NCBI GenBank assembly: GCA_965235115.1
Contig: OZ249436.1
Location: 124,001-188,000, forward strand
DNA from: Laetmonice hystrix
Lineage: Eukaryota
Direction: 5' to 3'
Length of the DNA: 64,000 nucleotides
Shown: in pieces, positions 19,408-25,400 of the stretch
How positions within the stretch are numbered: the stretch's first letter is position 1
Layout of the letters: the number at the start of each line of letters is the position of its first letter
Made by a program: the position numbers and the translations under genes
Notes under the pieces: model-generated
Database searches by the model: none
What the model was told of the DNA's origin: nothing
What the model saw: only the letters and a program-made list of their open reading frames with translations

Positions 19408-22400
19408 GTAGGTTATACTAGATATCATCGACAGAATACAAGGGTGCGTCTCACTTCGCCAAAATAATGATGGATGTCGCTGAGGCAAGGAACATTCGTC
19501 GCCGACCCCGTATACTACTCTTGTTTCACACTGCCCTTGCAATTTTTTCAGTCACTTGTTTTTCAAAGATGGCTGCTATTTAATGAAGCGTACCTCTGGA
19601 CGATCAATCGGATTCCTTATAACCTTAATCAGTGCATGCGAAGGACAATATGAGAAGTCTTCGTATCCCTAACCCTAACCTAACCCTAACCCTAACCCTA
19701 ACCTAACCCTAACCCTAACCTAAAATCAGTGCATGTGGAGGACAATACGAGAAGTCTTCATATCGGCAACATCATTTTGAAGATTCACTTTCTTCGTGGT
19801 TGGGGAAAATGTTTCATTTCCATAATCAGTGCATACAGAGGATTATGAGAAGTCTTCATATCGACAATGTCATGTTGGAGGTTCACTTTCTTTGTGTTTC
19901 TTGGTGTTTTTCGTGATTGTCTTTAGAGGGACGGTTTTAATCTGACTTCCTATCGCTCTCCTCACTTCTTCTTCTTCTTCTTCTTCTTCTTCTTCTTCTT
20001 CTTCTTCTTTTAAGTCTAGTCGACTTTTTTACCGTTCTGTAAAGCCCCTGTCCCATACTGCCGATTCCGTCTAAATATTTACGTCAGACGGTGTCAGACG
20101 GCGGCAAATTCATTTTTTTGCCATGAACGGTAGATAGAAAAGCATAAGTAACGTCTAAATACGTCTGAGAAACGTCTGCTTAAGTATGAGTAACGTCTTC
20201 ATTCAGCCCAGCTTACGGAACATCGAACGCCTGATTAACGTCTGCTTAAGTATGAGTAACGAACAAAACGGCTGAAAAACGTCTGAAATACGTCTATCAC
20301 CATTCAGTCTCCGTCTTAAAAAAAGGCCAAGCTCCGCCCATCGCCTCCTCACAACAGTCGTGGCTCATGGACAGTCCACATCGATCGTTCTGTGGGCCGA
20401 GAAGGCCCAGCCCGGTTTTTTGGTTTATTTTTCCACCGTGAGCAAGGATGAGCTGAGCAAGGGTGAGCATGAGCTCATTCTCGCCGTTTTCCTGTTTTTG
20501 AGTTGTTTTTTTTATGAGGCGTGCTCATGGTGAGCAAGCTCACGAAAAAACACCCCAAAAAACGAAATCAGTGAGCAAAACGGTGAGCATGAGCTTCTGC
20601 TCACCCTTGCTCAGTTCAGCTCAGCTCACCCTTGCTCACGGTGGAAAAGTAAACAAAAAACATTCATTATATTAAAAAGTATTGTTGTGAGAAGTTTTAG
20701 GTACGCAGGACCCAAGCTTTTTCAGTTGGTTGTCCGTTTCTGCCCGTCTGGCCGTTGCCAAGGCGTTTATCGCACTTATCTCTAACTTTTTGTATGCGTT
20801 TTAACCGTTATTCAGACGTGATTAGACGTTGATAGACGTTCCTCTATCCGTATCCATCCGTTTTTACCGTTGCCGGGAATGTTTCTTGGACGTTATTCAG
20901 CTGTTTTCTTGCCGGTTTCACCGTTCCATAGACGTATAGTGCGTTCCGTGGCTGGAGGCGAACGAGCTGTCCGCCTGCCCAACAGCCATAAAAGTCTAAA
21001 AACCGGTAAGATTCCGCCTGAGTAACGATGAAAACGGCAAAAACCTGCCAGAGTAACATTATGAGAACCGCCAATCGCGATCGGAAGCTGGCCGTTTCAA
21101 ACTTTGAACATGTCCAAAGTTTATACGGCTAGCGCCGTCTGTCAACGTCTAGATACGTCTGAAAACCAGCTGAAAAACAAATTAAAAACGAATGACAACG
21201 TCCAATAAACGTACGCCTTCGTTTTTCAGACGGAATCGTTAAACGGCGCAGTGGGACAGTAGCTTAAAGTTCAGAGCTTTCCTTACGTATAACGTATAAA
21301 ACGTCGTAATTTGATATAATTTTTAGACGACACTAGTGAGATAACGGATAACAGAAAGTACAATGATATCAACAGCTTTTATAACGTGTTTCATGCCAAA
21401 CTCGTATTGCAGCACACTGCCCCTATGTGTGTGTTACACCATGTTTCATGTCAAACTCGTATTGCAGCACACTGCCCCTATGTGTGTGTTACACCATGTT
21501 TCATGCCAAACGCGTATTGCAGCGCACTGCCCCTATGTGTGTGTTACACCATGTTTCATGCCAAACGCGTATTGCAGCACACTGCCCCTATGTGTGTGTT
21601 ACACCATGTTTCATGTCAAACTCGTATTGCAGCACACTGCCCCTATGTGTGTGTTACACCATGTTTCATGCCAAACGCGTATTGCAGCGCACTGCCCCTA
21701 TGTGTGTGTTACACCATGTTTCATGCCAAACGCGTATTGCAGCACATTGCCCCTATGTGTGTTCTACACCATGTTTCATGCCAAACGCGTATTGCAGCAC
21801 ACTGCCCCTATGTGTGTTTTACACCATGTTTCATGCCAAACGCGTATTGCAGCACATTGCCCCTATGTGTGTTTTACGCCGTGTTTCATGCCAAACGCGT
21901 ATTGCAGCACACTGCCCCTATGTGTGTGTTACACCATGTTTCATGCCAAACGCGTATTGCAGCACCCTCCCCCTATGTGTGTTCTACACCATGTTTCATG
22001 TCAAACTCGTATTGCAGCGCACTGCCCCTATGTGTGTGTTACACCATGTTTCATGCCAAACTTATGTTGCAGCACACTGCCCCTATGTGTGTTTTACGCC
22101 GTGTTTCATGCCAAACGCGTATTGCAGCACACTGCCCCTATGTGTGTGTTACACCATGTTTCATGCCAAACTTATGTTGCAGCACACTGCCCCTATGTGT
22201 GTTTTACGCCGTGTTTCATGCCAAACGCGTATTGCAGCACACTGCCCCTATGTGTGTGTTACACCATGTTTCATGCCAAACTTATGTTGCAGCACACTGC
22301 CCCTATGTGTGTGTTACACCATGTTTCATGCCAAACTTATGTTGCAGCACACTGCCCCTATGTGTGTGTTACACCATGTTTCATGTCAAACTTATGTTGC

Positions 22401-25400
22401 AGCACATTGCCCCTATGTGTGTGTTACACCATGTTTCATGCCAAACTTATGTTGCAGCACACTGCCCCTATGTGTGTGTTACACCATGTTTCATGTCAAA
22501 CTTATGTTGCAGCACACTGCCCCTATGTGTGTGTTACACCATGTTTCATGTCAAACTTATGTTGCAGCACACTGCCCCTATGTGTGTGTTACACCATGTT
22601 TCATGTCAAACTTATGTTGCAGCACACTGCCCCTATGTGTGTGTTACACCATGTTTCATGTCAAACTTATGTTGCAGCACACTGCCCCTATGTGTGTGTT
22701 ACACCATGTTTCATGTCAAACTTATGTTGCAGCGCACTGCCCCTATGTGTGTGTTACACCATGTTTCATGTCAAACTTATGTTGCAGCACACTGCCCCTA
22801 TGTGTGTGTTACACCATGTTTCATGTCAAACTTATGTTGCAGCACACTGCCCCTATGTGTGTGTTACACCATGTTTCATGTCAAACTTATGTTGCAGCAC
22901 ACTGCCCCTATGTGTGTGTTACACCATGTTTCATGTCAAACTTATGTTGCAGCACACTGCCCCTATGTGTGTTTCCGGAATCCCTGTATGCATGGCGGAT
23001 CTTGTTGGAACTACTTCGGCTTCCCGAGATGTTTCTGTCGCGAAGGATTTAGGGGTAAACGATGTGAGATAGGTACGTTTTGACAGGGTCTAGGTATTAC
23101 AAAAAAGTAGTTTATTAGTTTATAAACTAATAAATAGATAATAATTAGGCCTATAGTTTCTTATCTGGAATTACTTACTTACTAACTTACAATGTTGACC
23201 TATCGAAAACTAAATATTCTTCTCCTTTTTTTTCTTGTAGACATTGACGACTGTCCGCGAGCAAATTGTATGAATGGTGGTACATGTATAGACGGCCCTA
23301 ATAGTTTCACATGTCAATGTCCCATTGAGTATACTGGTCCTAGCTGTGAATTCGGTAAGTATATGTTGCATATGTTACATTTAGTCTGTACTTGAATCAT
23401 AAATATATGTTCGTAGATGGTCCTGGTATGAGATGTGAATGTATACATGTGATTATGTTGATGACGTACTTCTAGAACAATGACCTTTCACGTGGCAACA
23501 TTATGATCGTTTGCATACAATGTCTGTTGCCAGCGGTGGGGCTGTTGCATAAATTTCGCTAAAATTGCTATTGAATTTCAATGTCGATCTTAGCGATCGG
23601 GAATCTATGGAACGCCTCCCCCCTCCGGCTGGGATCATGAAACTTCACATATTACTTTCTAGCCATCATCATTTCTAACCATTTCGTTACCTTTCACCGT
23701 TTTGTAGCCATCATCAATTCTAACCATTCCGTTACCTTTCACCGTTTTGTAGCCATCATCAATTCTAACCATTTCGTTACCTTTCACCGTTTTGTAGCCA
23801 TCATCAATTCTAACCATTTCGTTACCTTTCACCGTTTTGTAGCCATCATCATTTCTAACCATTTCGTTACCTTTCACCGTTTTGTAGCCATCATCAATTC
23901 TAACCATTTCGTTACCTTTCACCGTTTTGTAGCCATCATCAATTCTAACCATTTCGTTACCTTTCACCGTTTTGTAGCCATCATCAATTCTAACCATTTC
24001 GTTACCTTTCACCGTTTTGTAGCCATCATCAATTCTTACCATTTCGTTACCTTTCACCGTTTTGTAGCCATCATCATTTCTAACCATTTCGTTACCTTTC
24101 ACCGTTTTGTAGCCATCATCAATTCTAACCATTTCGTTACCTTTCACCGTTTTGTAGCCATCATCAATGCTAACCATTTCGTTACCTTTCACCGTTTTGT
24201 AGCTATCATCAATGCTAACCATTTCGTTACCTTTCACCGTTTTGTAGCCATCATCAATTCTAACCATTTCGTTACCTTTTACCGTTTTGTAGCCATCATC
24301 AATTCTTACCATTTCGTTACCTTTCACCGTTTTGTAGCCATCATCAATTCTAACCATTTCGTTACCTTTCACCGTTTTGTAGCCATCATCAATTCTAACC
24401 ATTTCGTTACCTTTTACCGTTTTGTAGCCATCATCAATTCTTACCATTTCGTTACCTTTCACCGTTTTGTAGCCATCATCAATTCTAACCATTTCGTTAC
24501 CTTTCACCGTTTTGTAGCCATCATCAATGTTTTTCAGATGTTGATGATTGCGCGTGTCCAGTTCAGTGTTTGAATGGTGGCAGTTGCGTGGACGGCCTCA
24601 ACTCGTTCACGTGTGACTGTCCGACAGGGCTATATACGGGACCACTGTGTGAAACATGTGAGTTTGTTTGAATGTGCATCCATTCACACTCACACTGATC
24701 ACATCCCCCTGGAGCATGAGATGGTCACAAGAGACGAAAAATAATGGGGCGAGGGCTGCTATGTTCAAGTGGTTGTGTGTCAGACTACATATAATCATTT
24801 TTTCACTATCCCTCCCAAGTTTTTTTTTTGTTTTTTTGTTTTTTTGCAGTGCCAACAGATCACAAATTACGTCTGCATCTCGCAGTTGATGCCTAATGAC
24901 TGAACAGGATTATTTTAACCAGGAATATTCCCAGTATTACCATCGTCATTTCACACTATCTTCCATTACCGGCATCACAATAATTTATTAAACTGATATT
25001 TTTATTGAACCCTAGATATTAAAGGCTATATTCTTGAATGTTACAGCACTGGATGATTGTATAGGCGTGAACTGCAATGGGGGCACATGCATCGATGAGA
25101 TATTTAGCTATGATTGTGTATGTCCAACAGGATTTACAGGGGTAAACTGTGAAACAAGTGAGTAAATTGTTTTATTTCAGCTCTGTTAAAGGTATCACAT
25201 AAATTAGTTTGTGTAAGGAAAATAGGCTGAGCTTTAAAAAACAAGTAGGAGAAGATCGGACAAAGAAGGAAAGCAACCAAACAGTTACCAAACCTGATAC
25301 GCAGGTCTTACTTTAAAGGTGCTATTCGTCTCGCACAGAATGGCATTTCTCCTATCATACATTGTGCACATAGTACTAGAAACAATTCCTACCGATACCA

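Follow-up and report, generated by a model that had tools for sequence, protein, structure and literature searches.

Intron-exon boundaries duplicated in the manner of a minisatellite are known from amphioxus as "mirages" and have been described in Adh3, troponin C, the globins BflGb6 and BflGb9, and PGBD5 (PMC3087553, PMC3902484); these and the other published cases below are cited from parts of the respective reports. In BflGb6, the 3′ end of an intron and the 5′ portion of exon 2 are repeated together in 3 to 6 units, and, in the sections cited, splicing of the amphioxus mirages appears normal, with no aberrant mRNAs (PMC3087553, PMC3902484). A minisatellite also lies across a junction in human F7, where the first element of a 37-bp variable number of tandem repeats (VNTR) in intron 7 spans the exon 7 donor. 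The repeat is polymorphic, with 5 to 9 identical donors, and only the donor contiguous with the exon is used, though the pseudo-sites of this intron are functional when tested (PMC1557585). Finally, the Rogers model has introns gained where a tandem duplication spans an AG|GT proto-splice site (PMC3087553), as in the case of a potato RdRp gene (PMC4974935). Here, we describe a locus in a 64-kb stretch of DNA (the window), which covers 124 to 188 kb of contig 1 in a 627-Mb assembly of 35 contigs. At the boundary between intron 1 and exon 2 of a secreted multi-EGF gene, the window carries 29 head-to-tail copies of a 55-nt unit, each with its own TTGCAG acceptor.

The array has the features by which mirages are recognized: it is a head-to-tail repeat of minisatellite size, and its unit spans an authentic junction, so that the splice signal is repeated with every copy. 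The published mirages that we found also have a cephalochordate host in common, a shared circumstance rather than part of the definition, and the present host, a probable annelid, does not share it. We put the probability at roughly 80% that the array is a mirage-type minisatellite, formed by tandem duplication of an intron-exon boundary, in which the last copy is the working acceptor and the other copies are tolerated.

Structure of the array and its host gene

The array was called with Tandem Repeats Finder (TRF) and the TTGCAG hexamers were located by script; all coordinates follow the numbering of the window. The central features, with the evidence for each, are as follows.

19308 to 19407, + strand: exon 1, with ATG and a hydrophobic start, ending in phase 1 before GTAGGT (paralog match).
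19408 to 22952, + strand: intron 1, 3545 nt (BLAST blocks against the paralog, TRF, read depth).
21377 to 22971, + strand: 29 head-to-tail copies of the 55-nt unit (TRF, script, sequence).
22947 to 22952, + strand: terminal TTGCAG, the presumed authentic 3′ splice site (no other acceptor adjoins the remainder of exon 2).
22953 to 23072, + strand: exon 2, 120 nt, first EGF domain, followed by donor GTACGT (PF00008, 37.5 bits against a cut-off of 21.5).
22972 to 22975, + strand: TTTC directly after the last unit, the likely microhomology end of the founding duplication (paralog sequence).

TRF, which returned 86 rows for the window, places the array at 21387-22972 with a period of 55, 28.8 copies, 95% matches, and 0% indels. 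There are 29 TTGCAG hexamers, the first at 21407-21412 and the last at 22947-22952, and all 28 spacings between them are 55 bp by script. Each unit contains a single AG and consists of 36 nt from the end of intron 1, TTGCAG included, and 19 nt from the start of exon 2. The junction within the unit is validated by the reading frame, by the EGF Pfam match, and by the single-copy junction of a paralog. An earlier reading of the letters alone (the sequence-only reading) had proposed both this composition and the 29 acceptors in exact 55-bp steps, and both are borne out. The acceptor positions that it gave, 21413 to 22953, have the right spacing but are the first exonic bases; the AGs themselves end at 21412 (first) to 22952 (last).

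Variation within the array is ordered. Fourteen distinct unit sequences follow one another in perfect register, and they differ by 15 types of variant, 10 of them transitions and 5 transversions. Toward the upstream end, 12 copies are more variable, with the most varied units at the 5′ end. Meanwhile, the commonest unit sequence is represented by eight identical copies, the terminal one included, all among the last nine, and these nine exon-nearest copies are identical across the 36 intronic nt of the unit. The variants form a limited higher-order pattern, in which one block of 3 units and one of 2 units are duplicated; a consistent 165-bp (3-unit) module was not found in the variant pattern.

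Exon 1 begins with a putative signal peptide, judging from the hydrophobic run itself rather than from a predictor, and the reading frame runs from exon 1 via the terminal acceptor into the EGF domain of exon 2. Fourteen further EGF exons follow, the last ending at 63605, for 15 in the window with one EGF domain each. All 15 are 111 to 120 nt long, divisible by 3, flanked by AG and GT, open, and in possession of their six Cys; Pfam was run on 7 of the 15, and all 7 scored above the EGF cut-off. In 40 kb examined beyond the window, there is one more EGF exon, at window-equivalent positions 64521-64616. The first bases of contig 1 are CCCTAA repeats, and this copy of the gene is a subtelomeric one encoding a secreted multi-EGF protein. 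We also observed interstitial CCCTAA/TTAGGG runs in the introns of the gene, at 19667-19723, 29189-29227, 44960-45011, and 53174-53227. The run at 19667 is missing from the intron of the paralog, and the CCCTAA chromosome end lies 124 kb from the window.

Comparison with the paralog

We searched the whole assembly for the 55-nt unit. Outside the array, it occurs in one place, a paralog located 19.78 Mb along the same contig, whose exon 1 and exon 2, the latter in the same frame, enclose a 574-nt intron with a single TTGCAG acceptor, at identities of 85 to 90%. Across 414 nt that take in exon 1, its donor, and the beginning of the intron, identity to the paralog is 86.7%, and the exon 2 region is 89.5% identical over 190 nt, in the same phase. 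The paralog's equivalent of the unit has a TTTC tetramer on either side, the distance between the two being exactly 55 nt (counted by hand); they lie at 4732-4735 and 4787-4790 on the reverse strand of the extracted contig 1 segment 19.777-19.787 Mb. No such minisatellite was present in the 10 kb around the paralog. Because the paralog has the boundary once, between TTTC tetramers 55 nt apart, the single-copy junction is ancestral and the array a derived tandem duplication. The array came from the gene's own boundary and not from a foreign satellite, as the unit is unique to this locus except for the paralog, where it is single-copy.

By BLAST, intron 1 is collinear with the 574-nt intron of the paralog. 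Its additions relative to that intron are a CCCTAA run resembling telomere repeats, unmatched sequence amounting to about 1.26 kb, and the 55-bp array, and the last part of the unmatched stretch is a high-copy repeat. In short reads, the word depth of this repeat, which lies at 21000-21323 directly before the array, runs into the thousands, compared to about 50 to 70 in the flanks; the repeat is a dispersed element inserted in intron 1 and is absent from the paralog's intron.

The paralog has its own peculiarities. At its locus (contig 1, 19.777-19.787 Mb, minus strand), exon 2 is present twice, 1195 bp apart, flanking exon 1, and the homolog of exon 3 is shortened by an (AG)n run. The locus appears rearranged and is a possible pseudogene. 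Exon 1 is present a third time, as a partial copy with 96% identity, at 3.507 Mb on contig 1.

Open frames and coding potential

From 21385 to 23049, there is no stop codon in any + frame, the open stretches being 21320-23083, 21345-23072, and 21385-23052; on the minus strand, 43 to 49 stops per frame occur between 21200 and 23200. We joined exon 1, which ends in phase 1, to each acceptor by script and found 10 of the 29 to be in frame, at 0, 3 ... 27 units upstream, with the farthest at 21468. The remaining 19 lead to a TAG, which lies either at 23050-23052 or at 23070-23072. With every in-frame step, the product gains 55 aa, among them 9 Cys and 5 His. These results agree with the sequence-only reading, which had described three open + frames over about 1.5 kb, every third acceptor in frame at 10 sites up to 21468, a Cys/His-rich 55-aa insertion per step, and stops at 23052 or 23072 for the other acceptors. 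It had offered two interpretations, a length or expression dial for a secreted protein and a spliceosome that ignores near-identical decoys. In the first, the in-frame acceptors form a coding ladder that adds 55-aa Cys/His-rich modules to the mature N terminus, a notion to which the 10 in-frame acceptors and the roughly 1.6 kb open in three frames lend themselves.

The open frames themselves are what composition predicts. A tandemly repeated 55-mer is open in all frames if it is without TAA, TAG, and TGA, and shuffles of the unit were stop-free in 4.5% of cases when mononucleotide content was kept and in 36% when dinucleotides were preserved. Among 55-mers sampled from 19408-64000, 17.5% were stop-free, a figure inflated by the other arrays in that interval. 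The openness is no greater than chance or composition gives and is not evidence of coding. That the frames stay open despite unit variants, as the sequence-only reading observed, is weak evidence too. Stops are created by 25 of the 165 possible substitutions of the unit (2 of 55 transitions and 23 of 110 transversions), and simple arithmetic from these counts gives a probability of about 0.21 that no stop would appear among 10 transitions and 5 transversions.

Searches with the repeat peptide were similarly unproductive. Pfam returned no family above cut-off for the three frames, DUF5470 being sub-threshold in two of the three (22.2 bits against a cut-off of 25, with no stretch passing). Word-index searches gave no match for the in-frame 534-aa reading among proteins of similar length, nor for three units plus exon 2 among longer proteins, the latter result being weak evidence. 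A phmmer search with the 494-aa repeat reading returned 26 matches, of which 23 were examined. We rejected these as homologs: 21 of the 23 are translations of repeats with a 55-aa period (20 of them with 55 as the top lag), and the other two have periods of 56 and 147. A single 55-aa unit reached at most 19.9 bits in phmmer, with E = 79 for the library size.

The array is without coding signal. A coding tandem repeat or modular domain was rejected on account of a period, 55, that is not divisible by 3, the lack of any family above cut-off or real homolog in these searches, and the lack of any excess of openness. The ladder has further difficulties: the paralog has a single acceptor and no repeat peptide, the higher-order repeats (one 3-unit and one 2-unit block) do not amount to a consistent 165-bp module, and an odd number of Cys, nine per module, would probably make a secreted protein prone to misfolding. 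We consider it very improbable that the in-frame acceptors encode such modules. Of the two earlier interpretations, the length or expression dial is unsupported, while a spliceosome passing over near-identical decoys finds support in the parallels with amphioxus mirages and F7.

Long open frames recur elsewhere in the gene. From 33121 to 38967, about 5.8 kb of a 12-bp repeat (CCCTCACGCTCC) makes up most of the intron before exon 10 and is likewise open in all three + frames. As this repeat illustrates, long false open reading frames (ORFs) are common in the window.

Splice-site context and choice of acceptor

All 29 copies share a weak polypyrimidine tract, with a pyrimidine fraction of 0.47 to 0.53 between positions -20 and -4, compared to 0.53 to 0.94 for the gene's other 14 acceptors. 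The copies differ only in their downstream context: the last alone has the body of the EGF exon and a donor 120 nt away. Use of a decoy would make exons of 175 to 1660 nt, as against 111 to 120 nt for the real EGF exons. A good donor was not found in the array; the best candidate, TAT|GTGTGT, agrees with 6 of 9 consensus positions, and its use would yield a 14-nt exon and a 41-nt intron. Because only the last copy precedes an exon body and a donor 120 nt off, we expect exon definition to choose it.

Other explanations of acceptor choice were considered and rejected. Masking of the decoys by RNA structure is not indicated, the last three units plus exon 2 folding like their shuffles (z = 0.02). 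Recursive splicing would need a donor at the joint of exon 1 and a decoy, and the joint, GAG|CACACT, recreates none. The array is also not a tandem acceptor of the NAGNAG type, in which AGs are spaced by 3 nt and share a branch point and tract; here the spacing is 55 nt and each AG has a tract of its own.

A different outcome would follow if decoys were used to a sizeable extent. Two thirds of the products would then be frame-shifted and degraded, and the length of the array would set the output of the gene, making it an unproductive-splicing sink and, in effect, an expression dial turned by copy number, not necessarily a selected one. Two points speak for such a sink: between -35 and +19, the decoys do not differ from the authentic site, and the pyrimidine tract of that site is weak. 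So does the position of the stops, which for 19 of the 29 acceptors fall inside exon 2, upstream of at least 14 later junctions. Under the exon-junction rule of nonsense-mediated decay (NMD), stops this early trigger decay, as they presumably would here. Against this, the published cases of duplicated junctions are, in the sections cited, without aberrant mRNA. We regard substantial loss of transcripts to the decoys as unlikely.

Assembly support and integrity of the gene

The setting of the array invites the question of whether it is an assembly artifact, or whether the gene is a decaying subtelomeric pseudogene in which decoys no longer matter. Satellites and long interspersed nuclear elements (LINEs) crowd the window, which lies 124 to 188 kb from a chromosome end beginning in CCCTAA repeats, and no short-read contig spans the array. 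However, both junctions of the array are matched without differences by short-read contigs from three runs of one sample, designated X1, X2, and X3: contigs cover 21241-21414 in X1 and X2, 22945-23400 in X1 and X3, and the sequence from 22998 onward in X2. The succession of 14 unit variants in perfect register likewise speaks against these readings, as do the 15 of 15 EGF exons in the window that remain open, with six Cys, lengths divisible by 3, and AG/GT flanks. An artifact or a pseudogene is in our judgment a highly improbable explanation. A variant-specific contig at 21937-21999 had a depth of 37.2 compared to 67.7 in the flanks in one run and 32.2 compared to 61 in another, a weak hint of heterozygosity.

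Other arrays at splice junctions of the gene

Further minisatellites adjoin the junctions of the same gene. Those called by TRF are the following.

23656 to 24528, + strand: 45-bp array, 19.4 copies, ending 10 nt before exon 4 (24538), with TTTGTAG in each unit.
42598 to 43112, + strand: 63-bp array, 8.2 copies, starting 11 nt after exon 11, with a degenerate first copy from the donor and GTAAGA units.
46408 to 46631, + strand: 57-bp array, 3.9 copies, composed of the tail of an EGF exon, donor CAG|GTAC, and 13 nt of intron.
46823 to 47773, + strand: 63-bp array, about 15 copies, beginning exactly at the GT of the exon 14 donor.
48166 to 48698, + strand: 65-bp array, 8 copies, its first unit composed of the final 23 nt of exon 15 and donor GTAGGT, so that decoy donors stand in a row.
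63596 to 63999, + strand: 68-bp array of the same family as the 65-bp array, at the exon 16 donor, continuing to window-equivalent 64319.

More degenerate copies of the 57-bp array reach back toward exon 13, and the arrays on the donor side give rows of 4 to 15 donor-like GTs. We asked how often such proximity would arise by random placement. Arrays were counted between 19408 and 64000 if their period was 30 or more and their copy number 3.5 or higher; after overlapping TRF rows were merged, 12 remained, with microsatellites, 12-bp arrays, and four arrays of fewer than 3.5 copies left out, and 31 junctions were definable. Six of the 12 end within 25 nt of a junction, compared to 0.81 expected (P = 7.5e-5). 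When arrays were collapsed by family, the two 63-bp arrays counting as one and the 65- and 68-bp arrays as one, the figure was 4 of 10 (P = 0.003). Exons that escaped detection would only raise the junction-adjacent count. In the 40 kb beyond the window, no new array was found within 25 nt of its one EGF exon, the tail of the 68-bp array being the sole one there.

These figures, which apply to this one gene, suggest more than an accidental association of minisatellites with splice junctions. A more far-reaching idea is that minisatellites are born or retained preferentially on junctions, where an exon-anchored terminal copy, preserved by selection, could re-seed the array, and that the decoy acceptors and donors act as heritable, copy-number-dependent brakes on productive splicing. 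We think this quite unlikely, and mention it as speculation.

Proposed origin and objections

The reading that we favor is that of a mirage-type duplication with its last copy in use. A 55-nt segment, comprising the final 36 nt of intron 1 and the first 19 nt of exon 2, would have been duplicated between two TTTC microhomologies, probably through slippage, and then raised to 29 copies, whether by slippage or by unequal exchange, with the latest expansion next to the exon. The remainder of exon 2 follows the last copy alone, so that normal protein would come from no other copy, and the spliceosome would select the last copy by exon definition, 120 nt upstream of the exon 2 donor. The 28 upstream copies would be silent or rare decoys. 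Their products, where formed, would have premature stops (19 of the 29 acceptors) or carry a nonsense peptide of 55 aa and 9 Cys for every three units, and NMD would eliminate two in three of any transcripts leaking to decoys. The array would have no coding function and would at most lower productive splicing.

Several observations weigh against this account. By pyrimidine content, the authentic acceptor is tied for weakest among the gene's 15, which would make competition easier, and the decoys, matching it from -35 to +19, are transcribed first, such that some use of them is plausible. The published arrays are short (3 to 6 units in BflGb6 and 5 to 9 in F7, in the sections cited), and tolerance of 28 decoys is an extrapolation from them. 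The strong clustering of arrays at junctions is unexplained by simple neutrality. Finally, with no short-read contig across the array, the copy number is that of the assembly alone.

The locus constitutes a natural experiment on the choice of 3′ splice sites, with 29 near-identical acceptors and, in the same gene, rows of identical donors. The nine exon-nearest acceptors are particularly suited to this, given that their intronic parts are identical and only their distance from the body of the exon differs. Exclusive use of the last acceptor, if it occurs, would be strong in vivo support for exon definition or proximity over a first-come-first-served rule. For annotation, arrays of this kind create long false ORFs that can yield misleading gene models.

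Host affiliation and repeats outside the gene

Contig 35 of the assembly is a 16.8-kb mitochondrial genome in which the identified protein genes all lie on one strand, in the order nad1-nad3-nad2-cox1-cox2-cox3-nad6-cob-atp6-nad5-nad4L-nad4. It includes the block cox3-nad6-cytb, described, in the portion cited, for pleistoannelids, amphinomids, and sipunculids (PMC12249979). All nine of the annelid mitochondrial amino acid motifs tabulated in that report (Table 1, PMC12249979) are present in the translations. According to the portion cited, no non-annelid in RefSeq has four or more such motifs, and four of the tabulated motifs are absent or rare in the basal Owenia, Magelona, and chaetopterid lineages (PMC12249979). 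The mitochondrial markers very probably place the host in Annelida, outside those basal lineages. A search of the presumed rRNA part of the contig against Rfam gave 0 matches, and the non-coding region (contig 35, 1-2150) appears, from recurring ORF patterns, to hold a tandem repeat of about four units, each about 512 bp long.

Upstream of the gene, the window contains two LINE-type ORFs with endonuclease and reverse transcriptase, at 6880-10455 on the + strand and 12636-16004 on the - strand (1191 and 1122 aa). The best database homolog of these ORFs is 63% identical. Blocks of a G-rich 34-bp satellite, at 1-6543, 10906-12333, and 15909-17296, enclose both ORFs, and the placement of the LINEs may reflect insertion into, or a preference for, this satellite.

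Comparison with known systems

Like the intron gains of the Rogers model, the array arose through tandem genomic duplication that multiplies the splice signals of a junction or proto-splice site already in place. Unlike them, it has produced no new intron, its unit having one AG and no good donor.

The F7 VNTR resembles the present gene in being a minisatellite that spans a junction, and its layout is shared by the donor arrays at 48166-48698 and 63596-63999. The 55-bp array itself was rejected as a VNTR of the F7 type, since it repeats the acceptor and not the donor; furthermore, the authentic site comes first in F7 and last here. The 5′-to-3′ scanning rule shown for donors would, if applied naively to this array, favor the wrong acceptor, namely the first.

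The amphioxus mirages differ from this array in host, cephalochordate as against probable annelid, and in size, with 3 to 6 copies in BflGb6 as against 29. Normal splicing was demonstrated there and is predicted here. In addition, the present gene has at least five further arrays hugging its junctions, which sets it apart from the amphioxus cases. The likenesses concern the architecture itself: in both, the unit spans the boundary, the AG or GT is repeated, and the authentic copy is the outermost of its array, and in amphioxus, as in the EGF gene described here, 5′ as well as 3′ boundaries can be affected. BflGb6 is the closest counterpart, as the end of an intron and the start of exon 2 are duplicated there exactly as in this array. 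Our literature search found no report of mirage-type arrays in annelids, and the scale of 29 acceptors is unmatched by any published case that we found. With this locus, mirage-type duplications are extended beyond the cephalochordates, in an array notable for its size, its host, and the similar arrays in the same gene.

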